A stretch of 64,000 nt of DNA, taken from the NCBI RefSeq assembly GCF_003334785.1, contig NZ_QOWV01000001.1. One strand, 5' to 3'. The notes under the pieces were generated by a model that was not told the origin of the DNA, searched no databases, and saw only the letters and a program-made list of their open reading frames with translations. Shown here piece after piece: positions 1 to 22,200 of the stretch. The stretch is from Escherichia coli. GTDB taxonomy: Bacteria; Pseudomonadota; Gammaproteobacteria; Enterobacterales; Enterobacteriaceae. Each line of letters starts with the position of its first letter. The stretch's first letter is position 1. Both the position numbers and the translations under genes were made by a program.

Positions 1-1128
1 GCCCATACTTTGAAAATTCAGCTTGATAAACCGTTGCCGTGGTTTGTGAATTTAACCGCTAACTTTGCCTTCTTCCCGGTGCAAAAAGCCAACGTAGAAA
101 GCGGTAAAGAGTGGACGAAACCCGGAAATCTGATCGGCAATGGCGCTTATGTTCTTAAAGAGCGCGTAGTCAATGAAAAACTGGTCGTGGTACCGAATAC
201 CCATTATTGGGATAACGCCAAAACGGTACTGCAAAAAGTGACCTTCCTGCCAATTAATCAGGAATCCGCAGCCACTAAGCGTTACCTCGCGGGGGATATT
301 GATATCACCGAATCCTTCCCGAAAAATATGTATCAGAAGCTGTTGAAGGATATTCCGGGGCAGGTTTATACGCCGCCGCAGCTCGGGACCTATTATTATG
401 CGTTTAACACGCAAAAAGGGCCGACGGCAGATCAGCGCGTTCGTCTGGCATTAAGTATGACGATAGATCGCCGCCTGATGACCGAAAAAGTATTAGGGAC
501 GGGCGAAAAGCCAGCGTGGCATTTTACACCAGATGTTACCGCGGGATTTACGCCGGAACCTTCGCCGTTTGAACAAATGAGTCAGGAAGAACTGAATGCG
601 CAGGCAAAAACTTTGTTGAGCGCAGCTGGTTATGGTCCGCAAAAACCGCTGAAGCTGACGCTTTTGTATAACACTTCAGAAAACCATCAAAAAATTGCGA
701 TTGCTGTAGCATCGATGTGGAAAAAGAACCTTGGCGTAGATGTTAAATTGCAAAATCAGGAATGGAAAACCTATATCGATAGCCGTAACACCGGCAATTT
801 TGATGTTATCCGCGCCTCGTGGGTGGGGGATTATAATGAACCCTCCACTTTCCTGACATTATTAACGTCAACGCATTCAGGAAATATTTCACGCTTTAAC
901 AATCCGGCATATGACAAAGTTCTGGCCCAGGCATCGACGGAAAATACCGTTAAAGCGCGTAATGCCGATTACAACGCGGCAGAAAAAATCCTCATGGAGC
1001 AAGCACCGATTGCACCAATTTATCAATATACCAATGGACGATTAATCAAGCCGTGGCTGAAAGGTTATCCCATTAATAATCCTGAAGATGTGGCGTACAG
1101 TCGGACTATGTATATTGTGAAGCATTGA
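1..1128 (+). CDS. mppA: Periplasmic murein tripeptide-binding protein MppA, C-terminal 372 aa; gene begins upstream of the window
   Basis: ORF 10..1128 is open to the window edge; sequence recognised as OppA/MppA-family substrate-binding protein; followed by ynaI as in K-12. Confidence 0.85.
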   Translation, partial: AHTLKIQLDKPLPWFVNLTANFAFFPVQKANVESGKEWTKPGNLIGNGAYVLKERVVNEKLVVVPNTHYWDNAKTVLQKVTFLPINQESAATKRYLAGDIDITESFPKNMYQKLLKDIPGQVYTPPQLGTYYYAFNTQKGPTADQRVRLALSMTIDRRLMTEKVLGTGEKPAWHFTPDVTAGFTPEPSPFEQMSQEELNAQAKTLLSAAGYGPQKPLKLTLLYNTSENHQKIAIAVASMWKKNLGVDVKLQNQEWKTYIDSRNTGNFDVIRASWVGDYNEPSTFLTLLTSTHSGNISRFNNPAYDKVLAQASTENTVKARNADYNAAEKILMEQAPIAPIYQYTNGRLIKPWLKGYPINNPEDVAYSRTMYIVKH

Positions 1129-1178: not shown

Positions 1179-2210
1179 TTAGCGACCCTGTTCCGGCGGT
1201 GTAATGTTATCCATATACAGCGTCTGGCTGGGGAAGGCAAAGTCCGCGCCGTGTGACTGTACAATATCGATAATCTTCAAATAAACGTCTTGCTGTGCAG
1301 CAAGCCATTCAGCCCATACCGTGGTTTTGGTAAAGCAATAAACCATAATATTCAATGAAGAGTCAGCAAACTGGTTGAAATAAACCAGTAAGGTTTGTCG
1401 CTGGTCGATGGCCGGGTGATTTTTCAGCATCTCACGTACAGCTTCGACAATAACGCCCACTTTTGCCGCATCCTCATAACGTAAACCAATGGTCGTGGTA
1501 ATGCGGCGGTTGGTCATTCGTCCTGGGTTTTCTACGCTGATCGACGAAAACAGCGAGTTCGGTACGTACAATGGACGATTATCAAAGGTCGTAATTTTGG
1601 TAATTCGCCAGCCAATTTCCGCTACTGTACCTTCGATATTTCTGTCCGGTGAACGGATCCAGTCGCCAATACTGAAAGGACGGTCGAAATAGAGCATAAT
1701 CCCGGAAAAGAAGTTACTCAGAATATCTTTACCGGCCATACCGACAGCCAGACCACCAATACCACCAAAGGTCAGCAAGCCAGAAAGGCTCATGCCGAAA
1801 TGTTCGCCATAAAGCAGAACAAGCACCACAATAATGGTGATTTTGATGATACGCGACATAATCCGCGCACTGGTGATATCGCGACCTTTTTTAATCTGCT
1901 GTTTTTCAAACTGATTAATCAGCAGAAATAGCTTAATCGTCAGAATAACCGCAATCAGGGACGTACAGATAAAATCGATAACGCCTGGGGTGATAAATTT
2001 GAGTTTATAGTTTTCTATAACATAATTAATAATGCTACCAACAGCACTGATAATTATGGTGTAGATTAAAAATTGCACCGCATGGAATAAAAATCCTTTT
2101 CTTTTACGATTTCCACGGCGAAACCAAAAGCTCATCAGAATCAATGCTGCGCAGCTACCGAAAATAATGACCAGATTAAGCGCATTATTTGTAAACAGTT
2201 CAGCGATCAT
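1179..2210 (-). CDS. ynaI: MscS-family small-conductance mechanosensitive channel YnaI
   Basis: 343-aa ORF with N-terminal hydrophobic helices and MscS-like C-terminal domain; length and position match K-12 YnaI. Confidence 0.9.
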
Positions 2211-8344: not shown

Positions 8345-9654
8345 CAGATACCTCGCGTCCAGGGAAAATTGAGCGCGGTGCGCGCCAGCGTTTCGACGGC
8401 AATAGCGAGAACCTGCTCGTCAAAATCGAATTTTTCGTTGTGATGACCTGCCGCCAGCTGTGTGCCAAACACCACGTAGGAGGCTTGCCCTTGATGTTGC
8501 TGCACGCGGGCCATCATTAATGTGGCATCTTCGGAACCCGCAGGCGCTTCAACACGTTCAATGGCCTGATTGACCCCCGCGACCTGAGCCGCCTGACTTT
8601 GCAACCATGCGACCCATTGCGGCGAAGGAGAACTGGCGGTAGCTGCACCCATCAGACGAGTTTCAACGCCGACACCATACATGGTTGCTGCGCCCTGAAT
8701 CGCTTGTTGTGCACGGTCAAAAACATATTGATTAATGACGTCGCTGGCCCCGCGTGTTTCCACTTTCAGCAACGCCGAGGCAGGAACAACGTTACGACCG
8801 CTTCCTGCCTGCATAACGCCCACGTTTACTCTGGAAGCTCCTTCGCTGTGCGGGGCGATTGCATGCAGTGCAAGAGTGGCTTGTGCTGCCGCCAACAAGG
8901 CATTGTGACCGTCTTCTGGTTTTGCGCCTGCGTGAGCGGCGGTACCGGTGAAGTGCGCGTCAAATTTGGTGGTTGCCATAAAATTATCACTGCCGCACAC
9001 CACGGTGCCCGCAGGTACGCCAGTGCCAATGTGCACGGCAGTAAAATAATCAACATCATCTACGACACCTGCATCGACCATCGCCCGCGCGCCACGCGTA
9101 CCTTCCTCTGCAGGCTGAAAAATCAGTTTGATGACGCCATGTAGTCCGGACTCGAACTGTTTAAGGGTATGCGCCAGCCCAAGCCCAATGGCGGTATGTC
9201 CATCATGACCACAGGCATGCATCATTCCGGCGTTACATGACGCAAAACCGTCGCGGTAGGGGCGATGGCTGACATCCTGCTCTTCACTGAGATCCAGCGC
9301 GTCCATATCGACACGGAAAGCCATCACCGGACCGGGGCGACCGGTATCCAGGGTGGCGACGATACCAGTGAAACCACCTTCAAAAGCCGCAATCCATTGT
9401 GCTAGCGCACCCTGTTGACGAGCGCGCTCGAATTCGCGTTGTAGAGTGAATTCATCAGGTAATCCCATCCGGCTACTTTCATTAACTACTTCGCGACCCA
9501 GCGCCAGTGAATAGCCGAGCTGGTGCAATTCTTCCGCAACAAGGGTGGCGGTGCGGAATTCCACCCAGCCAGACTCTGCATAGTGATGAAAATCACGTCG
9601 CCAGTGCGATAATTTTGGGGCAAGCGAATTAACAAATTGATTCAAAGACTCCAT
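8344..9654 (-). CDS. abgA: p-Aminobenzoyl-glutamate hydrolase subunit A (M20 peptidase family)
   Basis: ORF 8344..9669; start placed at MESLNQF (436 aa); stop overlaps abgB start (ATGA). Confidence 0.9.
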   Translation of the reverse strand: MESLNQFVNSLAPKLSHWRRDFHHYAESGWVEFRTATLVAEELHQLGYSLALGREVVNESSRMGLPDEFTLQREFERARQQGALAQWIAAFEGGFTGIVATLDTGRPGPVMAFRVDMDALDLSEEQDVSHRPYRDGFASCNAGMMHACGHDGHTAIGLGLAHTLKQFESGLHGVIKLIFQPAEEGTRGARAMVDAGVVDDVDYFTAVHIGTGVPAGTVVCGSDNFMATTKFDAHFTGTAAHAGAKPEDGHNALLAAAQATLALHAIAPHSEGASRVNVGVMQAGSGRNVVPASALLKVETRGASDVINQYVFDRAQQAIQGAATMYGVGVETRLMGAATASSPSPQWVAWLQSQAAQVAGVNQAIERVEAPAGSEDATLMMARVQQHQGQASYVVFGTQLAAGHHNEKFDFDEQVLAIAVETLARTALNFPWTRGI

Positions 9655-9829: not shown

Positions 9830-10738
9830 ATGGCTTTTCAGGTAAAAATTCATCAAATTCGGGCTTTTGTTGAAGTGGCTCGTCAGGGCAGCATTCGCGG
9901 AGCGAGCCGAATGTTGAATATGTCGCAACCGGCACTGAGTAAATCTATTCAGGAGCTAGAAGAAGGGTTAGCGGCGCAACTCTTTTTTCGCCGTAGTAAA
10001 GGCGTGACGTTAACTGATGCCGGTGAAAGTTTTTATCAGCACGCCAGTCTAATTCTTGAAGAGCTGCGCGCAGCCCAAGAGGATATTCGCCAACGACAAG
10101 GGCAACTGGCAGGGCAGATTAATATCGGCATGGGGGCCAGTATTTCCCGCAGTCTGATGCCAGCTGTCATATCTCGTTTTCATCAGCAGCATCCGCAGGT
10201 AAAAGTACGCATTATGGAAGGGCAACTGGTGTCGATGATTAATGAATTGCGTCAGGGAGAATTGGATTTCACCATCAATACCTATTATCAGGGACCGTAC
10301 GACCACGAATTTACTTTTGAGAAATTACTGGAAAAGCAATTCGCGATCTTTTGCCGCCCGGGACACCCCGCCATTGGTGCCCGTTCGATCAAACAGTTAC
10401 TGGATTACAGCTGGACAATGCCGACGCCACACGGCAGCTACTACAAACAGTTGAGTGAATTGCTTGACGATCAGGCGCAAACGCCACAGGTCGGTGTAGT
10501 CTGCGAGACGTTCTCAGCCTGTATCAGTCTGGTGGCAAAAAGCGATTTTCTCAGCATACTGCCTGAAGAAATGGGCTGCGATCCCTTGCACGGACAGGGG
10601 CTGGTGATGTTGCCGGTTAGCGAAATTTTACCGAAAGCGGCCTATTATTTGATTCAGCGGCGTGATAGTCGCCAGACACCACTGACCGCGTCATTAATCA
10701 CGCAATTCCGGCGAGAATGCGGCTATCTGCAAAGTTAA
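9830..10738 (+). CDS. abgR: LysR-type transcriptional regulator AbgR
   Basis: 302-aa ORF, N-terminal LysR HTH, divergent from abgABT. Confidence 0.9.
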   Translation: MAFQVKIHQIRAFVEVARQGSIRGASRMLNMSQPALSKSIQELEEGLAAQLFFRRSKGVTLTDAGESFYQHASLILEELRAAQEDIRQRQGQLAGQINIGMGASISRSLMPAVISRFHQQHPQVKVRIMEGQLVSMINELRQGELDFTINTYYQGPYDHEFTFEKLLEKQFAIFCRPGHPAIGARSIKQLLDYSWTMPTPHGSYYKQLSELLDDQAQTPQVGVVCETFSACISLVAKSDFLSILPEEMGCDPLHGQGLVMLPVSEILPKAAYYLIQRRDSRQTPLTASLITQFRRECGYLQS

Positions 10739-10744
10739 AACTGC

Positions 10745-10840
10745 ATAAAAAAATAGAGTCTGTCGACATCCGCCAGACTCTACAGTACACACAGCAGTGC
10801 ATCCGCGTCTTAAATCCGGCATTGTCTCCTCTGCGCCGGT
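10745..10840 (-). ncRNA. mcaS: Small regulatory RNA McaS (IsrA)
   Basis: Minus-strand sequence ACCGGCGCAGAGGAGACAAUGCCGGAUUUAAGACGCGGAUGCACUGCUGUGUGUACUGUAGAGUCUGGCGGAUGUCGACAGACUCUAUUUUUUUAU matches my recollection of McaS, ending in hairpin plus U7; lies between abgR and smrA. Confidence 0.8.
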
Positions 10841-11067
10841 GACTGTGTTATAACGGTTTTAACCTTTAGTTGCCAATTTTCTTCAGTGACAGATTTCACG
10901 AAAATATAAGTTACATTATTAATATCGTGAATGAATAATCATGCATAAGTATTTTGCTTAAAATATCGGCAATATTTGGAACTTATTACTGGAAATTTGG
11001 GTAATACGTTGTTGGACCGACCCGGTCTGGTTATCATATCGCGCTCTTAATTGCGGGAGGATGTAAC

Positions 11068-11631
11068 ATGAACCTTGACGACAAATCGCTGTTTCTTGAC
11101 GCCATGGAAGATGTCCAGCCGCTGAAACGTGCTACCGATGTCCACTGGCATCCAACGCGTAACCAACGTGCGCCGCAGCGTATCGACACGCTGCAGCTTG
11201 ATAATTTCCTCACCACCGGATTTCTCGACATCATCCCACTAAGTCAGCCGCTGGAGTTTCGGCGGGAAGGGTTGCAACATGGGGTGCTGGATAAGCTGCG
11301 CAGTGGTAAATATCCGCAACAGGCGAGCCTGAATCTTTTGCGCCAGCCGGTGGAAGAGTGCCGCAAAATGGTGTTCAGTTTTATTCAACAAGCCCTGGCG
11401 GATGGTTTGCGTAACGTGCTGATTATTCATGGTAAAGGGCGGGATGATAAATCGCATGCCAATATTGTCCGCAGCTATGTGGCGCGCTGGCTGACCGAAT
11501 TTGATGATGTTCAGGCATATTGCACCGCGCTACCGCATCATGGCGGCAGCGGGGCGTGTTACGTCGCACTACGTAAAACGGCGCAGGCGAAGCAAGAAAA
11601 CTGGGAGCGCCACGCTAAGCGCAGTCGTTGA
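11068..11631 (+). CDS. smrA: Smr-domain DNA endonuclease SmrA (YdaL)
   Basis: 187-aa ORF; synteny. Confidence 0.85.
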   Translation: MNLDDKSLFLDAMEDVQPLKRATDVHWHPTRNQRAPQRIDTLQLDNFLTTGFLDIIPLSQPLEFRREGLQHGVLDKLRSGKYPQQASLNLLRQPVEECRKMVFSFIQQALADGLRNVLIIHGKGRDDKSHANIVRSYVARWLTEFDDVQAYCTALPHHGGSGACYVALRKTAQAKQENWERHAKRSR

Positions 11632-11651: not shown

Positions 11652-12884
11652 TTATGCCGCCAGCACGCGGTTGCGTCCATCATTTTTCGCCCGATACAAA
11701 GCATCATCAACGCGTTTAAACAGTTCATCGATGCTTTCATTTCCTTCGTGATGCGCCACACCAATGCTGACGGTAAAGCGTGGTAAGCCCGAAATACTCA
11801 CTTTTGCCACGCTTACGCGGATAGTTTCAGCCAGCGAAAGCGCGGTATCCAGTGGGGTTCTTGGTAGCAATAAGACAAACTCTTCGCCTCCCCAACGAAA
11901 CACCAAATCGCCTTTGCGAGCGCAACTTTCGAGGGTGCGGGCGAGGGCGCATAACACCTCATCACCTTTAGAATGCCCATAGAGATCGTTAATGTGTTTA
12001 AAACGATCGGTGTCGATGAGCAACAAGCTGTAATCCTGAGCGATGGCGAGATGCTGCATTTGGCCTGGTTCCGTAATGTGATAAAACTGTCGCCGATTCA
12101 GTAATCCGGTCATCGCGTCATGGTGAGCAGCATGTTCCAGCTGCTCCTCCAGCCGTTTTTGCTCAGTAATATCATGCACAATACATAACATGAGCTTGTC
12201 GCCATAAATTTCAATCGGTCCGGCATAGGTCTGCACATGACGAGTCGAACCATCCGCCAGTTTATGAACAAAATTCAAAGGTTTATGACCACCGGGTAAA
12301 TGCGAGATTTCATGCATGATAGGCATGACGCGACGCCCGAGCATATTTATTTCCCAGGTATGTTTCTGGCACATCGTTTCATGGTTATAACCATAGAAAT
12401 TGAGCGCGGCGAGGTTAGCATCGACGATTTGTCCATCTCGTGACGGGTCAATCAACAACATTGGTGCAGAGTTAGTCAGAAAAAAGCGCGCATAAAAACC
12501 TTGTTTTTTGCGCTGATAATTTGCCGAGCGACTGGCTTTTAAACCCAGCGTTGCCGGCGCTTCGATACCTTCGAAAATAATCACCGGTTCTGTTTCTGTC
12601 AGCTTTCGCAAAACAAGCCGACAGCTCAATGCTGTTTCCTCTTCTTTACGCTGAACAGTGAGGATTTCGATAATATCGTGTTGGTTTTGCAGATCGGAGA
12701 GGTATTTCGGCAGTTCTTTTTGTGAGGAGACGGAATAGGGTCCGGTTCGTAGCTGACTAAACGTGAGGTCTTGCATCAACAGTTTCGCCGCGCTATTGGC
12801 ATAAATTAACTGTTCCTCAAAGGGCGAAACGATCCAGACAGGACTGGTGAGTAAGTCCAGGGTATTGAAGTTGTGCGTAATCAT
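11652..12884 (-). CDS. dgcM: Diguanylate cyclase DgcM (PAS-PAS-GGDEF)
   Basis: ORF 11652..12944; start at MITHNFNTLDLL (410 aa); GGEEF active-site motif present (RWGGEEFVLLL). Confidence 0.9.
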   Translation of the reverse strand: MITHNFNTLDLLTSPVWIVSPFEEQLIYANSAAKLLMQDLTFSQLRTGPYSVSSQKELPKYLSDLQNQHDIIEILTVQRKEEETALSCRLVLRKLTETEPVIIFEGIEAPATLGLKASRSANYQRKKQGFYARFFLTNSAPMLLIDPSRDGQIVDANLAALNFYGYNHETMCQKHTWEINMLGRRVMPIMHEISHLPGGHKPLNFVHKLADGSTRHVQTYAGPIEIYGDKLMLCIVHDITEQKRLEEQLEHAAHHDAMTGLLNRRQFYHITEPGQMQHLAIAQDYSLLLIDTDRFKHINDLYGHSKGDEVLCALARTLESCARKGDLVFRWGGEEFVLLLPRTPLDTALSLAETIRVSVAKVSISGLPRFTVSIGVAHHEGNESIDELFKRVDDALYRAKNDGRNRVLAA

Positions 12885-13117
12885 TGAGATCCCGTTATTT
12901 TTATCAATTTTTGTTGCTATCCGATCGCAAAAAAGCCACGTCATATGATCAGATAATTCTGATAATGATAGACGCTATTTAACACTTCACACGGTTTGTA
13001 TACGGAAAAGCATTTTGCTTTTTGTATTCAATTTAGACAGAATTTTATTAATCATTTCAGGGTAATGGGGTGATGAGATGTTGCGTAACAGGGCCAGAAG
13101 GCTAGACTACAAAATAA

Positions 13118-14122
<1,005 letters not shown>

Positions 14123-14168
14123 CAAAAGCAATTTTTCCGGCTGTCTGTATACAAAAACGCCGCAAAGT

Positions 14169-14182
14169 TTGAGCGAAGTCAA
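14169..14182. promoter_or_regulatory. FNR box TTGAG-CGAA-GTCAA centred about 42 bp upstream of the fnrS 5' end
   Basis: Inverted repeat resembling TTGAT-N4-ATCAA at class II promoter spacing; CAATAT -10-like hexamer at 14204..14209. Confidence 0.65.
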
Positions 14183-14217
14183 TAAACTCTCTACCCATTC
14201 AGGGCAATATCTCTCTT

Positions 14218-14339
14218 GCAGGTGAATGCAACGTCAAGCGATGGGCGTTGCGCTCCATATTGTCTTACTTCCTTTTTTGAATTACTGCATAGCACAATTG
14301 ATTCGTACGACGCCGACTTTGATGAGTCGGCTTTTTTTT
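14218..14339 (+). ncRNA. fnrS: FNR-activated small RNA FnrS
   Basis: Sequence GCAGGUGAAUGCAACGUCAAGCGAUGGGCG...GACGCCGACUUUGAUGAGUCGGCUUUUUUUU matches my recollection of FnrS; terminator hairpin plus U8; between zntB and dbpA. Confidence 0.85.
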
Positions 14340-14396
14340 GCCTGTTATTTATCAGCGTCTACCCTTTAAGAGTCCACCCAATGACCAGAGGGAAAT

Positions 14397-14570
14397 ATGA
14401 CGACACTTATTTATTTGCAAATTCCTGTCCCTGAACCGATTCCTGGCGATCCTGTTCCAGTGCCCGATCCGATCCCTCGCCCGCAACCCATGCCTGACCC
14501 ACCACCCGATGAAGAACCGATTAAATTGTCGCATCGTGAGCGTAGATCTGCGAGGATACGCGCCTGCTAA
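14397..14570 (+). CDS. Candidate 57-aa proline-rich small ORF (MTTLIYLQIPVPEPIPGDPVPVPDPIPRPQPMPDPPPDEEPIKLSHRERRSARIRAC)
   Basis: ATG 14397 preceded by GAGGGA; not in the ORF track, which shows no ORF under 60 aa; ends 30 bp before the dbpA start; no homology evidence available to me. Confidence 0.25.
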   Translation: MTTLIYLQIPVPEPIPGDPVPVPDPIPRPQPMPDPPPDEEPIKLSHRERRSARIRAC

Positions 14571-14599
14571 CTTTGCGTCGATGACCACGAGAATAGATT

Positions 14600-15973
14600 G
14601 TGACCGCTTTTTCTACCCTGAATGTTTTGCCTCCCGCCCAACTCACGAACCTTAATGAGTTGGGTTATTTAACCATGACGCCGGTGCAGGCCGCCGCGCT
14701 TCCGGCGATCCTTGCCGGAAAAGATGTTCGCGTGCAGGCGAAAACCGGCAGCGGCAAAACGGCGGCTTTTGGCCTCGGCTTGTTACAGCAAATTGATGCG
14801 TCGCTATTTCAAACCCAGGCTTTAGTGCTGTGTCCTACGCGTGAACTGGCGGATCAGGTGGCAGGTGAATTGCGTCGGCTGGCGCGTTTTCTGCCAAATA
14901 CCAAAATTTTGACGTTGTGCGGTGGTCAACCGTTCGGTATGCAGCGTGATTCGTTGCAACATGCGCCGCATATTATCGTGGCAACGCCGGGGCGTTTGCT
15001 GGATCACCTGCAAAAAGGCACGGTATCACTGGATGCGTTGAATACGCTGGTGATGGATGAGGCCGACCGCATGCTGGATATGGGATTTAGCGATGCCATT
15101 GATGATGTCATCCGTTTTGCGCCTGCATCTCGACAGACGCTTCTGTTTTCGGCAACCTGGCCGGAAGCCATCGCTGCAATCAGCGGACGAGTGCAACGCG
15201 ATCCTTTGGCGATTGAAATTGACTCAACAGATGCTTTGCCACCCATTGAACAACAATTTTATGAGACATCCAGCAAAGGCAAAATTCCTCTGTTGCAACG
15301 GTTATTAAGCTTGCATCAGCCATCCTCTTGCGTGGTGTTTTGCAATACCAAAAAAGATTGCCAGGCTGTCTGCGACGCGCTGAATGAAGTAGGGCAAAGT
15401 GCATTGTCATTACACGGCGATTTGGAGCAACGCGATCGCGATCAGACCCTGGTACGTTTTGCTAACGGTAGCGCCCGTGTACTGGTCGCGACTGATGTTG
15501 CTGCGCGTGGTCTGGATATTAAATCGCTTGAGCTGGTGGTGAACTTTGAGCTGGCGTGGGACCCTGAAGTTCATGTACATCGCATCGGTCGTACAGCTCG
15601 TGCAGGAAATAGCGGTCTGGCGATCAGTTTCTGTGCTCCGGAAGAAGCACAGCGGGCCAATATCATTTCTGACATGTTGCAGATAAAACTTAACTGGCAA
15701 ACGCCGCCAGCTAATAGTTCCATTGCGACGCTGGAAGCAGAAATGGCAACGTTGTGTATCGATGGCGGGAAAAAAGCCAAAATGCGCCCGGGTGATGTAT
15801 TAGGTGCACTGACAGGAGATATCGGGCTTGATGGCGCAGATATTGGCAAAATCGCCGTGCATCCGGCGCATGTCTATGTCGCGGTCCGTCAGGCTGTTGC
15901 TCATAAAGCATGGAAACAGTTACAGGGCGGGAAGATTAAAGGAAAAACGTGCCGGGTGCGGTTATTAAAATAA
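14600..15973 (+). CDS. dbpA: ATP-dependent RNA helicase DbpA (DEAD-box, 23S rRNA-specific)
   Basis: 457-aa ORF with GTG start; motifs AKTGSGKT, DEAD (VMDEAD), SAT, HRIGRTAR present. Confidence 0.9.
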   Translation: MTAFSTLNVLPPAQLTNLNELGYLTMTPVQAAALPAILAGKDVRVQAKTGSGKTAAFGLGLLQQIDASLFQTQALVLCPTRELADQVAGELRRLARFLPNTKILTLCGGQPFGMQRDSLQHAPHIIVATPGRLLDHLQKGTVSLDALNTLVMDEADRMLDMGFSDAIDDVIRFAPASRQTLLFSATWPEAIAAISGRVQRDPLAIEIDSTDALPPIEQQFYETSSKGKIPLLQRLLSLHQPSSCVVFCNTKKDCQAVCDALNEVGQSALSLHGDLEQRDRDQTLVRFANGSARVLVATDVAARGLDIKSLELVVNFELAWDPEVHVHRIGRTARAGNSGLAISFCAPEEAQRANIISDMLQIKLNWQTPPANSSIATLEAEMATLCIDGGKKAKMRPGDVLGALTGDIGLDGADIGKIAVHPAHVYVAVRQAVAHKAWKQLQGGKIKGKTCRVRLLK

Positions 15974-16021
15974 TGAAATGTTGAATTGCCGGGTGCAAGA
16001 GTAAACATCTTATTCGGGATT

Positions 16022-16092
16022 GCCGGATGCGACGCTGGCCGCGTCTTATCCGGCCTCCATAAGAGTAGCCCGATACGCTTGCGCATCGGGCG
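16022..16092. repeat. REP (repetitive extragenic palindromic) elements, two units
   Basis: GCCGGATGCGACGC...GCGTCTTATCCGGC and GCCCGATACGC...GCGCATCGGGC imperfect palindromes typical of E. coli REP/BIME, between convergent dbpA and ttcA. Confidence 0.6.
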
Positions 16093-16101
16093 CTATCCTG
16101 G

Positions 16102-17037
16102 TTATTTCACTTCAACCACATTCAGCCGTAACTCATCCAACTGATTTTCATCTTCTTCTGGCTGCCAGCACGCCGGTTGTAGTGGGATCTCTTCGCGATC
16201 AAACGCCAGATCACCCCCGTTAACCACTTCAGAACCGTGGGTGATGCCTTTGAAATCGAACAGGTTGGTATCGCACAGATGCGACGGCACCACATTCTGC
16301 ATCGCGCTGAACATCGTCTCGATACGCCCTGGATAACGTTTATCCCAGTCACGCAACATGTCAGCAATCACCTGACGTTGCAGGTTAGGCTGTGAACCGC
16401 ACAGGTTGCACGGAATAATCGGGAACGCTTTTGCATCGGCAAATCGCTGAATATCTTTCTCGCGGCAGTAGGCCAGCGGACGAATAACGATATGTTTGCC
16501 ATCATCGCTCATCAGTTTCGGAGGCATACCTTTCATCTTACCGCCGTAGAACATATTTAAGAACAACGTTTGCAGGATATCGTCACGATGGTGACCCAAC
16601 GCGATCTTCGTCGCCCCCAGTTCCGTTGCGGTACGATAAAGGATACCGCGACGAAGGCGAGAACACAGTGAGCAAGTGGTTTTGCCCTCTGGAATCTTCT
16701 CTTTCACGATACCGTAAGTATTCTCTTCAACAATCTTGTACTCAACGCCCAGCTTTTCAAGATACTCGGGCAGAACGTGTTCCGGGAAGCCCGGTTGCTT
16801 TTGATCGAGGTTAACAGCCACCAGCGAAAAATTGATTGGCGCGCTTTGCTGCAAATTGCGCAGAATCTCCAGCATGGTATAGCTGTCTTTACCCCCGGAG
16901 AGGCAAACCATGATGCGATCGCCTTCTTCAATCATATTGAAGTCAGCAATGGCTTCGCCCACGTTACGACGCAGACGTTTTTGTAATTTGTTCAGGTTGT
17001 ATTGTTCTTTCTTACTAATTTCTTGATTTTGCGACAT
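16102..17037 (-). CDS. ttcA: tRNA 2-thiocytidine(32) synthetase TtcA
   Basis: 311-aa ORF with PP-loop SGGKDS motif and CxxC pairs; uninterrupted. Confidence 0.9.
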
Positions 17038-17213
17038 TTAAAAGCGACTCAATTCGTTATATGGCATCAGAAGAGTATGCGTCATGCCGGAACGCCCAGC
17101 ATAAGAAATCTGATATAAAAAACTGTGGCGTGTATGGTACGGATTAGAGGGGAAAATGTCAGCACATTTGCGAAATGAATCAAAAAGCCCGCAGCAATGT
17201 GCGGGCGTTAGTG

Positions 17214-17729
<516 letters not shown>

Positions 17730-17753
17730 TTAGATCAAAGGAGGAAGAATAAG

Positions 17754-17781
17754 CAGAAAAAGCCCGCCATAACAGCGGGCA
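17754..17781 (-). terminator. Intrinsic terminator downstream of ompN
   Basis: On the minus strand GCCCGCTGTTATGGCGGGC hairpin followed by TTTTTCT. Confidence 0.65.
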
Positions 17782-17788
17782 GGAGGAT

Positions 17789-18922
17789 TTAGAACTGATA
17801 AACCAGACCTAAAGCGACAATATCATCGGTAGAGATGCCATTGGCAGCGTAGAAGCTGTCATCTTCATCCAACAGGTTGATTTTATAGTCAACGTAGGTG
17901 GACATGTTTTTATTGAAATAGTAAGTCGCGCCAATATCGGCGTATTTAACCAGATCTTTATCATCAACACCTGCCGGGTTGTCTGCACCACCCGCAGCGT
18001 GCAGGTCACGGCCTTTAGACATCAGGAAAGAGACTGCCGGACGCAGACCAAAATCAAACTGGTACTGTGCAGTGACTTCAAAATTCTGGGTTTTGTTTGC
18101 CACAGCATAATCGCTGTCGCCAAACGGGGTCATATTACGCGTTTCTGAATACATGGTTGCCAGGTAAATATTGTTAGCATCGTATTTTAGCCCAGCAGTC
18201 CACGCGTCTGCTTTATCACCACCCGCCGCAGTATGGTTAACCTGGTCATTGGTGCGGTCAGAAGAGGTGTATGCCGCACCAGCGCTAAAGCCCATGCCTA
18301 AATCATATGTTGTGGAAAGACCCCAGCCGTCACCGTTTTCATGGCGAACATCACGTCCGTTGTTGGTGCCTTCCTGACCATTACTGGCTCCTTCGTTGTT
18401 ACCTTGATACTGCACCGCGAAGTTCAGACCATTTACCAGACCGAAGAAATCAGTATTACGATAAGTCGCGACGCCATTGGCTCGACCAGTCATAAAGTTG
18501 TCTGCATTGGTATAAGAGTCACCGCCAAATTCAGGCAGCATATCGGTCCAGCCTTCGATGTCGTACATTACGCCATAATTACGTCCGTAATCGAAAGAAC
18601 CGTAATCTGCAAATTTCAGCCCGGCAAATGCCAGACGGGTCCATGACTGGTTTTTTGAAGATTCAGTGTTGTTTGCCTGAATATTGTATTCCCATTGCCC
18701 GTAGCCAGTGAGTTGATCGTTAATTTGGGTTTCGCCTTTAAAACCCAGACGCGCATAGCTCTGGTCGCCATCTTTCGCTGAATTATCAGAAAAATAATGC
18801 AGGCCATCAACTTTGCCATACAGATCTAATTTGTTGCCGTCTTTATTATAAACTTCGGCTGCATGTGCAGCACCTGCGGCGAGCAGGGCAGGAATTAAAA
18901 GTGCCAGTACTTTGCTTTTCAT
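17789..18922 (-). CDS. ompN: Outer-membrane general porin OmpN (OmpC/OmpF family)
   Basis: 377-aa ORF, signal peptide ending AHA-AEV, C-terminal ...GLVYQF typical of porins. Confidence 0.9.
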
Positions 18923-19149
18923 TGAATAAATCCTTTAGTTATTTTATTTGCCTTTTATCCCCATTTCGGGGAGTGAAAACATCCTAAAGGAGAAGTTCAG
19001 TTAGCCGATAAATATCATTTGTTACGCCTTAAGTAAAACCTTAATCAAATAATTCCTCTGAAATGATAATAAGTCTGGTGAATGTATCGAAGATAATACA
19101 TACAAAATAAAAATTATACTTTTAATTTGCTATACGTTATTCTGCGCGG

Positions 19150-19258
19150 GTTATATGCCTTTATTGTCACAGATTTTATTTTCTGTTGGGCCATTGCATT
19201 GCCACTGATTTTCCAACATATAAAAAGACAAGCCCGAACAGTCGTCCGGGCTTTTTTT
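19150..19258 (+). ncRNA. micC: Small regulatory RNA MicC
   Basis: GUUAUAUGCCUUUAUUGUCACAGAUUUUAUUUUCUGUUGGGCC...AAGCCCGAACAGUCGUCCGGGCUUUUUUU matches my recollection of MicC; divergent from ompN; its terminator hairpin (19229..19258) is flanked by A-run and T-run and so may also terminate ydbK on the other strand. Confidence 0.85.
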
Positions 19259-19288
19259 TTAGAATTGGATAATCCTTATCCAGAGCAT

Positions 19289-22200
19289 TTAATCGGTGTT
19301 GCTTTTTTCCGCTTTTCCGGCCATTTGTGCCAGGAAGTCATAGCGTTTTTGCAAATCAGCTGCAGCATCTTTCCATAACTGTTCTGCCACTTCTGGCTGC
19401 TGCGAATTCAGCCGACGGAAACGTTGCTCGTGAAGTAACGTTTCTTCCAGTGCTTCTGACGGCGGGCGTGAATCCAAGGCCAGCGGCAGTTTGCCTTCAT
19501 CGGCACGACGCGGATCAAAGCGATATAGCGGCCAGAAGCCGGTAGCTGTGAGTTGGCGCATCTGGTCGTGGCTGAGTGCCAGATCGTAACCATGCTCTTC
19601 ACACGGGCTATAAGCAATGATCAGCGATGGCCCCGGATACGCTTCCGCTTCCTGAATCGCTTTCACCGTCTGGTTCAGCTGCGCGCCGAGAGAAATCTGC
19701 GCCACATAAACATGACCGTACATCATCATACTGACGCCAAGATCTTTACGCGCTTTACGTTTGCCGTGCTCGCCAAATTTAGTTACTGCACCCAGCGGTG
19801 TCGCTTTCGACGCCTGACCACCGGTGTTGGAATAGCATTGCGTATCCAGCACCAGAATGTTGACGTTTTCCGTCAAACTCAATACATGATCCAGACCGCC
19901 AAAGCCGATATCGTAAGCCCAGCCATCACCACCAATCAGCCAGATTGATTTTTCCACCAGTGCATCTGCATCACGTAGCAGTTCATGTGCTTCGGCAACA
20001 TCGTTGAGTTGCTGGCGTAAAGCTGCAACCTGTTCACGACGAACCTCTGGCGTGGCGTCTGATTTCAACGCCGTCAGTAATTCCGCCGGGATTTTATCGG
20101 CAAATTGATCCAGCAGACGCAGCACGCGGACACGGTGTTGATCGACCGTCAGGCGGAAACCAAGGCCAAATTCGGCATTATCTTCAAATAGAGAGTTCGC
20201 CCATGCCGGCCCACGACCGTTGGCATCGGTGGTATACGGTGTAGAGGGCAGGTTACCGCCATAAATTGAAGAACAGCCAGTGGCGTTAGCGATCAACATC
20301 CGGTCGCCATAGAGCTGAGTCAGTAATTTAATATACGGCGTCTCGCCACAACCGGAGCAAGCACCTGAATATTCAAACAGCGGTGTAATCAGCTGCGATG
20401 TACGAATATCAATACGTTCCAGTTTGCTACGGTCGATTTCTGGCAGGTTGAGGAAGAAATCGTAATTGATTTTCTCTTCTTCGACATGTTCCAGGCGAGA
20501 CATCATATTGATGGCTTTAATCTCTGGATTCTGACGGTCTTTCGCCGGGCAAACTTCGACGCACAGGTTACAACCGGTGCAATCTTCCGGTGCCACCTGC
20601 AAGACATATTTCTGCCCGCGCATATCACGCGATTTCACATCCAGCGAATGCAGGCTGGCAGGGGCGTTTTCCATCGCTTCAGGCGGCACCACTTTTGCGC
20701 GAATAGCTGAGTGTGGGCAAGCGGCAACGCAGTGGTTACATTGGGTACAGAGTTCCTCTTTCAAGATGGGGATCTCTTCGGCGATATTGCGTTTTTCCCA
20801 GCGCGTAGTGCCCATCGGCCAGGTGCCGTCTGGCGGCAGCGCCGAAACGGGGAGGGCGTCACCAAGCCCGGCGAGCATCGCAGCGGTTACGGTTTTCACG
20901 AAATCAGGGGCGGCATCGGAAACCACTGGCGGTCGATTGGCGCTGTGCGGATTTACCGGTTGCAACGGAACTTCTTCTACGGATTCACGCGCCAGCGCCA
21001 GAGCCTGCCAGTTGCGTTCCACCAGATCCTGGCCTTTGCTACTGTAACTTTTGGCAATCGCACCCTGCAATTCTGCGAGGGCGCTATCGCCAGGCAGAAT
21101 TTGCGTCAGATGGAAAAAAGCCATCTGCATGACGGTATTAATACGGGCCGCCAGGCCACATTCGCGGGCGATTTTCGCCGCGTTAATCACATAGAAGCGC
21201 GCTTTTTTCTGGTTTAACACGGCCTGAACTTCTTGCGGCAAGCGCGACCACACTTCATCTGCGCTGTACGGCGTGTTGAGCAGGAAAATGCCGCCAGGTT
21301 TTAAACGCTCAGCCATCTGATATTTATCGATAAACTGCAACTGGTGGCAGCCAACAAAATCAGCCTGGGAAATGAGATAAGCGGAACGAATCGGCTGTTC
21401 GCTCACTCGAAGGTGAGAAACCGTCAGGCCGCCCGCCTTTTTGGAGTCGTAAACAAAATAGCCCTGTGCGTACCACGGCGTGGAATTACCGATAATCTTG
21501 ATATTGTTTTTGGTCGCGGAAACGCTGCCATCACTACCAAGGCCATAAAACAAGGCTTCCAGTTTCGCCGAGTTTGGCAGGGTGTTTTCCGGCAACGGCA
21601 GTGACAGATTGGTCACATCATCGTAAATACCAACCGTAAAGCGCGCTTTCGGTTTAGCCGCGTTGAGCTCGGCAAATACCGCCAGTACACAGTCTGGGCC
21701 AAATTCTTTGGATGAAAGACCATAGCGCCCACCAATGACACGGGGCAGAGTTTCGCGCTCGCCATTATTAAAGGCTTCTGCCAGTGCGGTCATTACATCC
21801 AGATAGAGCGGTTCTGCCTGGGCACCGGGTTCTTTGGTTCTGTCCAGTACCGCCACGCTGCGTACGGATCCCGGCAGAGCTTGCAGTAAATGTTTAGCGG
21901 AGAAGGGGCGGTACAGGCGAACTTTCAGCACGCCAACTTTTTCGCCACGGGTTAGCAATTCATCAACCACTTCTTCACAGGTGCCAATGGCAGAGCCCAT
22001 CAGGATAATCACCCGTTCCGCTTGCGGATGCCCGTAATATTCAAACGGCTGATACTGACGACCTGTCGCGGCAGAGAAATCATTCATCGCCTGTTCAACA
22101 TGGTCATAGACCGCGTTGTACCATGGGTTGGTGGCTTCGCGAGACTGGAAATAAGTGTCAGGATTGGCGGACGTACCGCGGATCACCGGATGTTCCGGGT

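Follow-up and report, generated by a model that had tools for sequence, protein, structure and literature searches.

Genomic context and identity of the sRNA gene

The window, a stretch of 64,000 nucleotides from Escherichia coli (contig NZ_QOWV01000001.1), carries on its minus strand the gene of the small regulatory RNA McaS (IsrA, IS061) at positions 10745..10840. This gene is convergent with abgR (9830..10738, plus strand), coding for a LysR-family regulator (NF007307, 631.8 bits), and divergent from smrA (11068..11631, plus strand), coding for the DNA endonuclease SmrA (NF033154, 252.8 bits); both neighbours are also annotated in K-12. The gap between them, delimited with the open reading frame list and the NCBIfam equivalog models, covers 10739..11067. 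Its length of 329 bp, from the abgR end at 10738 to the smrA start at 11068, is the one given in the earlier note. The stop codon of abgR is located 6 nt from the 3′ end of McaS as defined by Rfam, and the start of smrA lies 228 nt from its 5′ end, with 227 nt (10841..11067) in between. The Salmonella sRNA that is also named IsrA is a different RNA.

The whole window was scanned with Rfam 15 at curated thresholds, which yielded three matches in total, McaS among them. The RF00115 (McaS/IsrA) match scored 118.4 bits (E 1.9e-21), compared with a gathering score of 42, and its alignment runs from model position 1 to 96 of 96 along the minus strand, from 10840 to 10745, with maximal posterior probability throughout. 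The family is assigned by Rfam to clan CL00106. In the curated genome of K-12 MG1655 (NC_000913.3), the ncRNA mcaS (b4426, "small regulatory RNA McaS") is annotated at 1405658..1405751 on the minus strand, likewise between abgR and smrA, and window positions 10747..10840 are identical to it at 94 of 94 nucleotides. The earlier note had placed a minus-strand McaS of 96 nt between these two genes and had named a covariance model search and an alignment to the annotated mcaS as suitable checks. Both were carried out and both returned McaS. The proposed length is the one given by RF00115, compared with 94 nt in the curated annotation of K-12, and the proposed 5′ end is the annotated one. The 5′ end is the same in the Rfam model and in K-12, which sets +1 at window position 10840, whereas the two 3′ ends are 2 nt apart, beyond the U run.

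The similarity to K-12 extends well beyond the RNA, as the 5001 nt surrounding mcaS contain only two mismatches, at window positions 9550 and 10557. The window and K-12 share the sequence (94 nt), strand and neighbours of McaS, together with its three hairpins, four GGA motifs and csgD-complementary core, and no difference was found inside the RNA. The stretch is the known McaS/IsrA itself, already characterised and K-12-identical, and nothing about it is new. The overall evidence indicates, with a probability of about 0.97, that this is the mcaS gene, encoding an Hfq-dependent trans-acting sRNA of about 95 nt that pairs with csgD, is reported to pair with flhD and to titrate CsrA, and occurs in Escherichia coli and a few close relatives. 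No result spoke against this identification. The characterisation of McaS goes back to 2012, and both Rfam and the curated annotation of K-12 include it, so its detection here carries little weight as a discovery.

The gene is widespread in the species, since BLAST found a match in 5368 of 5426 complete E. coli genomes. The annotation is much less complete. In none of the 30 RefSeq E. coli records among the matches listed was any feature annotated over mcaS, in contrast to the curated MG1655 record, which does annotate it; around the mcaS of strain 720632, for instance, only CDSs are annotated. The remark that this RNA is easy to miss in protein-only annotation was thus borne out among these records, in which protein-centred or pipeline annotation hides a real motility-versus-biofilm regulator.

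RNA structure and terminator

The RF00115 consensus structure can be laid on the window sequence with zero non-canonical pairs. The first stem-loop (RNA nt 2-25; 10816..10839, minus strand) comprises a 6-bp stem and a 12-nt loop, and the Rfam consensus and the minimum free energy (MFE) fold agree on it. The second (10789..10808, minus strand) covers nt 33-52 in the Rfam structure and appears in a similar version in the MFE fold. The third element is a Rho-independent terminator (10747..10783, minus strand), consisting of a hairpin at nt 58-88 (10753..10783), which is found both in Rfam and in the MFE fold, and of a run of seven U. This hairpin has 12 pairs, is interrupted twice by a single base and closes with the loop GGAUG. 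The U7 occupies nt 88-94 (10747..10753) and is followed by AU, nt 88 serving at the same time as the last base of the stem, so that the 3′ terminus of McaS reads ...CUCUAUUUUUUUAU. The terminal hairpin with U7 noticed earlier is therefore present as described. Taken as a whole, the MFE fold contains hairpins 1 and 3 as in Rfam and a similar hairpin 2; its energy of -31 kcal/mol corresponds to z = -2.33 relative to dinucleotide shuffles, a value that is modest alone. The terminator region probably constitutes the Hfq-binding 3′ module of McaS.

A simple terminator scan reported none for mcaS. This may be explained by the interrupted stem, the outer contiguous part of which encloses 11 nt, while the scan accepts loops of 3-8 nt.

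Candidate promoter and CRP-like site

Upstream of the 5′ end, a candidate sigma-70 promoter (10847..10876, minus strand) can be read from the sequence. It is composed of the -35 hexamer TTGGCA at -36..-31 (10871..10876), an 18-bp spacer and the -10 hexamer TATAAC at -12..-7 (10847..10852). These hexamers are probably the ones used for mcaS. A consensus promoter scan reported no promoter for mcaS, as it requires a T at the last -10 position, where TATAAC has a C. The failure of both scans was considered as evidence against the gene and rejected in this role, because TATAAC falls outside the scan rules, as the interrupted stem probably does too.

Further upstream, a CRP-like palindrome, cGTGA-N6-TCACt, is found at 10885..10900 (minus strand), that is, at -60..-45 from the 5′ end with its centre at -52.5. 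CRP sites usually stand at -61.5 and further upstream (class I) or at -41.5 (class II), and -52.5 fits neither position. PMC3634460, which cites Thomason 2012, places McaS transcription under cAMP-CRP control. The K-12 experiments described in PMC3634460 and PMC4824073 likewise report McaS as an Hfq-dependent, cAMP-CRP-activated RNA of about 95 nt. The palindrome may be regarded as a candidate site for this published activation.

Distribution and conservation of mcaS

Orthologs were sought by a pattern scan using one genome per species, with a pattern that starts only at nt 53. The scan found 12 further loci/species genomes, all of which align with the complete Rfam model at scores above its threshold (74.7-108.7 bits). 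Within Escherichia, the carriers are E. albertii, E. whittamii, three other Escherichia species-level genomes and two divergent genomes labelled E. coli, while outside this genus they comprise Pseudescherichia vulneris, an Enterobacteriaceae MAG and four genomes of the Citrobacter amalonaticus group. McaS is reported as missing from the Salmonella genome in PMC3634460, which also equates E. coli IsrA (IS061) with McaS.

Upstream of the RNA, the -10 element reads TATAAC, TATAAG or TAAAAT in the orthologs and the -35 element TTGGCA or CTGGCA. Every ortholog from Escherichia and the C. amalonaticus group retains the GTGA-N6-TCAC half-sites. Conservation of all three elements (-10, -35 and CRP-like half-sites) extends across Escherichia and C. 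amalonaticus, and in the P. vulneris group they are degenerate. Within the RNA, an alignment of 14 sequences representing three genera shows nt 37-39 (GGA), 44-46 and 48-61 without variation and nt 47 conserved in 13 of the 14. Conservation of the csgD-pairing core (nt 37-52) was not imposed by the search, because the pattern began at nt 53. The terminator is nearly invariant among the orthologs as well, in part because the same pattern fixed 24 of its bases.

The contribution of covariation was limited. When the Rfam structure was placed on the MAFFT alignment of the 14 sequences, 86.3% of cells were paired, compared with 86.1% in column shuffles, which is not significant. RNAalifold recovered the terminator as the sole helix, and 100% of the terminator cells are paired. 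In the sequences from Citrobacter and P. vulneris, hairpin 1 is misaligned by MAFFT, and folding their 5′ parts one sequence at a time did not give a consistent structure. Covariation therefore adds no independent support for hairpins 1 and 2, and this is a limit of the alignment, not evidence against the structure.

These comparisons also bear on whether the locus could encode a small protein instead of an RNA. Two short open reading frames do exist mechanically, one of 42 aa on the minus strand (10694..10822) and one of 41 aa on the plus strand (10717..10842). However, the AUG of the former lies at RNA nt 19-21 with no stop inside the RNA, its stop at 10694 being 51 nt past the terminated 3′ end, and in the 13 other sequences compared this start codon is AGG, AUA or other. 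The plus-strand frame starts inside abgR, in another frame, and neither is annotated in K-12, though small proteins such as YnaN are listed nearby. A coding function of either frame is thus extremely improbable.

Two mcaS alleles in E. coli

E. coli Nissle 1917 (EcN) carries a second type of mcaS (fetched locus 1481..1576), which matches RF00115 over the full length with 112.8 bits. It differs from the K-12 type by 11 substitutions, nine of which fall in hairpin 1 (nt 6-20). In the stem of this hairpin, pair 7-20 changes from G-U to C-G, which is compensatory, and pair 6-21 from C-G to U-G. The promoter, the csgD-pairing core, the terminator and the GGA in the hairpin 1 loop are common to the EcN-type allele and the window, which has the K-12-type allele. 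Among the 5368 genomes with any match, a query coverage of at least 80% was obtained in 3904 with the K-12 type and in 1833 with the EcN type; the EcN-type allele is present in Nissle 1917 and in more than 1,000 other genomes. A class of BLAST matches at 79% query coverage was at one stage a candidate for a 5′-truncated mcaS. This was rejected, as the class represents a full-length allele with a divergent hairpin 1.

The genes around mcaS differ as well. The order abgR-mcaS-smrA is the same in K-12 and is not universal, for EcN-type strains are flanked differently. In strain EcN itself, an AraC-family gene stands in place of smrA, what is left of abgR is a pseudogene remnant, and ogt and fnr come immediately next. 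Despite both flanks differing, mcaS and its promoter are retained.

E. coli thus holds two deep mcaS alleles, nearly all of whose differences lie in hairpin 1, which presents the 5′-most CsrA-binding GGA; a proposal that McaS output differs by lineage as a result is doubtful. If the differences in hairpin 1 alter CsrA affinity or the CsrA-enhanced repression of csgD, McaS output would vary among E. coli lineages. An untargeted search of the McaS literature found no description of such lineage-dependent output.

The EcN locus is also informative with regard to the hairpin next to abgR. The hairpin with its U/A run could in principle be only the terminator of abgR, or a bidirectional one, with no separate RNA gene. 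The distance between the abgR stop (10738) and the hairpin base (10753) is just 15 nt, and read-through from abgR may well be stopped by this hairpin too. On the plus strand, however, A7 precedes the hairpin and CAGTACAC follows it, with no U run. Moreover, such a terminator would leave unexplained the 57 nt located 5′ of the hairpin, which match the model and are conserved, as well as the conserved upstream promoter. EcN keeps the whole RNA gene though its abgR is a remnant, the locus carries an ncRNA annotation in the curated K-12 record, and a discrete minus-strand transcript of about 95 nt has already been published for K-12. The chance that the hairpin belongs to abgR and to no RNA gene is accordingly negligible, and the identification of the locus as mcaS is maintained.

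Insertion sequences were observed at or near mcaS in some strains. In FDAARGOS_943 (fetched locus 1481..1580), the terminator hairpin of McaS is split by an element of the IS4 family, whose annotation reads IS4 family transposase, and the Rfam score is lowered to 63.3. The spacer between mcaS and smrA contains an IS1 in strain G5 and in nine others among the genomes listed. It is located about 152-165 nt upstream of +1 of McaS, a position that in G5 corresponds to window 10992..11005.

Complementarity to the csgD and flhD leaders

The leaders of csgD and flhD were taken from K-12, csgD being outside the window and the flhD leader corresponding to 299..496 of the fetched locus. Unrestricted RNAduplex predictions with these leaders were rejected: they gave implausible duplexes with large interior loops over 77 (csgD) and 95 (flhD) of the 96 McaS nucleotides. 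Their z values were -1.9 for csgD and -1.0 for flhD, and they were replaced by a test of the longest contiguous complementarity.

In this test, McaS nt 40-55 (UGCACUGCUGUGUGUA) formed 16 contiguous Watson-Crick pairs with csgD leader positions -96..-81. None of 1000 dinucleotide shuffles equalled this run, and the shuffle maximum was 11. The pairing is extended by McaS nt 35-41, which pair with csgD -79..-73 (7 nt). The csgD-pairing region determined in this way (RNA nt 35-55; 10786..10806, minus strand) overlaps stem-loop 2. The base-pairing with csgD claimed in the earlier note is thus reproduced as a 16-nt complementarity.

For the flhD leader of K-12, the longest Watson-Crick run was 7 nt, and 512 of 1000 shuffles were as good; a contiguous-run test cannot separate the published pairing, which involves two short regions (PMC3634460), from chance. 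The flhD arm of McaS activity therefore rests on published experiments, namely on the activation of flhDC by pairing of McaS with two regions of the flhD leader, given in PMC3634460 with reference to Thomason 2012.

The repression of CsgD is documented in PMC6061853, in which McaS binds the csgD 5′ leader and causes it to be cleaved in an A/U-rich region further upstream, a process that depends on Hfq and RNase E. The stability of McaS is also Hfq-dependent (PMC4824073, PMC6061853), and the RNA is undetectable without Hfq (PMC4824073). The description of McaS in the earlier note, covering pairing with csgD and flhD and titration of CsrA, agrees with PMC6061853, PMC3634460 and PMC10729762.

GGA motifs and CsrA

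McaS contains four GGA motifs, beginning at nt 12, 24, 37 and 70. The 5′-most one (nt 12-14; 10827..10829) lies in the loop of hairpin 1, a second one, in the csgD-pairing region, is located at nt 37-39 (10802..10804), and the fourth (nt 70) is inside the GGAUG loop of the terminator. A GGA at nt 11-14 and that at nt 37-39 are kept in all 14 sequences compared. Four GGA motifs are likewise attributed to McaS in PMC10729762, citing Jorgensen 2013, according to which two of them bind CsrA, the 5′-most and one overlapping the csgD-binding site. The csgD-pairing extension at nt 35-41 contains the GGA of nt 37-39, which fits the overlap between the second CsrA site and the csgD-binding site stated in PMC10729762. 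The same paper, again citing Jorgensen 2013, attributes to McaS a weak sponge activity towards CsrA and states that CsrA, for its part, enhances the repression of csgD.

Discussion

The identity and boundaries of the RNA, its structural elements, its complementarity to csgD, the GGA motifs, the candidate promoter sequence and the conserved state of the pairing core were observed in this analysis. According to the model proposed here, mcaS would be transcribed from its own minus-strand promoter, starting at 10840 and stopping at the Rho-independent terminator at 10745-10747. When carbon is poor, transcription would be activated by cAMP-CRP, as reported. The segment at nt 35-55 would then pair with the csgD leader, leading to Hfq- and RNase E-dependent cleavage and, as a consequence, to less CsgD, the master regulator of curli and biofilm. 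Pairing with the flhD leader would, according to published work, activate flagellar synthesis. The GGA motifs, at least those of the hairpin 1 loop and of nt 37-39, would bind CsrA and relieve CsrA repression, e.g., of pgaA. Within this model, the dependence on Hfq and RNase E, the binding of CsrA, the activation of flhD and the control by CRP are derived from the literature and are given as reported there.

Several other Hfq-dependent sRNAs, namely RprA, GcvB, OmrA/B, RydC and RybB, act like McaS as repressors at the csgD 5′ leader. They are unrelated to McaS in sequence and respond to different inputs. RprA and GcvB produce the same cleavage pattern on csgD as McaS (PMC6061853), whereas OmrA/B, RydC and RybB block translation initiation and thus differ from McaS, which induces upstream cleavage (PMC6061853, PMC3634460).

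McaS is at the same time comparable with CsrB and CsrC, which also titrate CsrA via GGA motifs, some of them in hairpin loops (PMC10729762). The GGA counts are 22 in CsrB and 14 in CsrC (PMC10729762), compared with the four counted here in McaS. McaS is also the much less effective sponge, with about 1.2-fold as opposed to about 9-fold in a single reporter assay (PMC10729762). It is partly sponge-like and is not a dedicated sponge of the CsrB/CsrC type, for which more than 10 GGA motifs, mostly in hairpin loops, and no base-pairing targets are expected: it has four such motifs and an evident segment for pairing with mRNA. Unlike McaS, CsrB and CsrC are not known to be base-pairing sRNAs that depend on Hfq.

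A different emphasis would see the main role of McaS in a ribonucleoprotein associated with the RNA polymerase (RNAP) core, containing Hfq, S1, ProQ, PNPase and CsrA and linking transcription to mRNA fate, or else in DNA-damage networks. IsrA/McaS is reported to associate specifically with the RNAP core in vivo and in vitro and to co-purify with Hfq, S1, ProQ, PNPase and CsrA (PMC4824073). A network analysis cited in that paper ties IsrA to DNA repair, and the divergent neighbour smrA encodes a DNA endonuclease. Yet the most conserved internal segment of McaS is the csgD-pairing core, and the regulation of csgD is genetically supported (PMC6061853). An RNAP-associated role would constitute a possible additional function and not a different identity, and it seems rather unlikely to be the main one.

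A further regulator of csgD lies close to mcaS. The gene dgcM (ydaM) starts about 2 kb from mcaS and occupies window positions 11652..12944 on the minus strand as a mechanical open reading frame of 430 aa; the K-12 start is 20 codons downstream, which gives 410 aa and positions 11652..12884. Its product, a diguanylate cyclase, promotes csgD transcription (PMC3634460). As both mcaS and dgcM act on csgD, two csgD regulators are near neighbours here.

Two other sRNA genes, both annotated in K-12, were matched full-length on the plus strand of the window: FnrS at 14218..14335 (RF01796, 134.8 bits) and MicC at 19147..19267 (RF00121, 125 bits). Further downstream of mcaS, the strain of the window differs from MG1655 in that the 23-kb Rac cryptic prophage of the latter is absent. 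K-12 positions 1408900-1411941 align with window 13989..17030, and K-12 positions 1434959-1438000 with window 16988..20029, at 99.9% identity. The 43-nt overlap of the two alignments (16988..17030) is the Rac attachment core at the end of ttcA. The flanks of Rac thus align directly across this core, which indicates that the window derives from a K-12-like, Rac-free E. coli.
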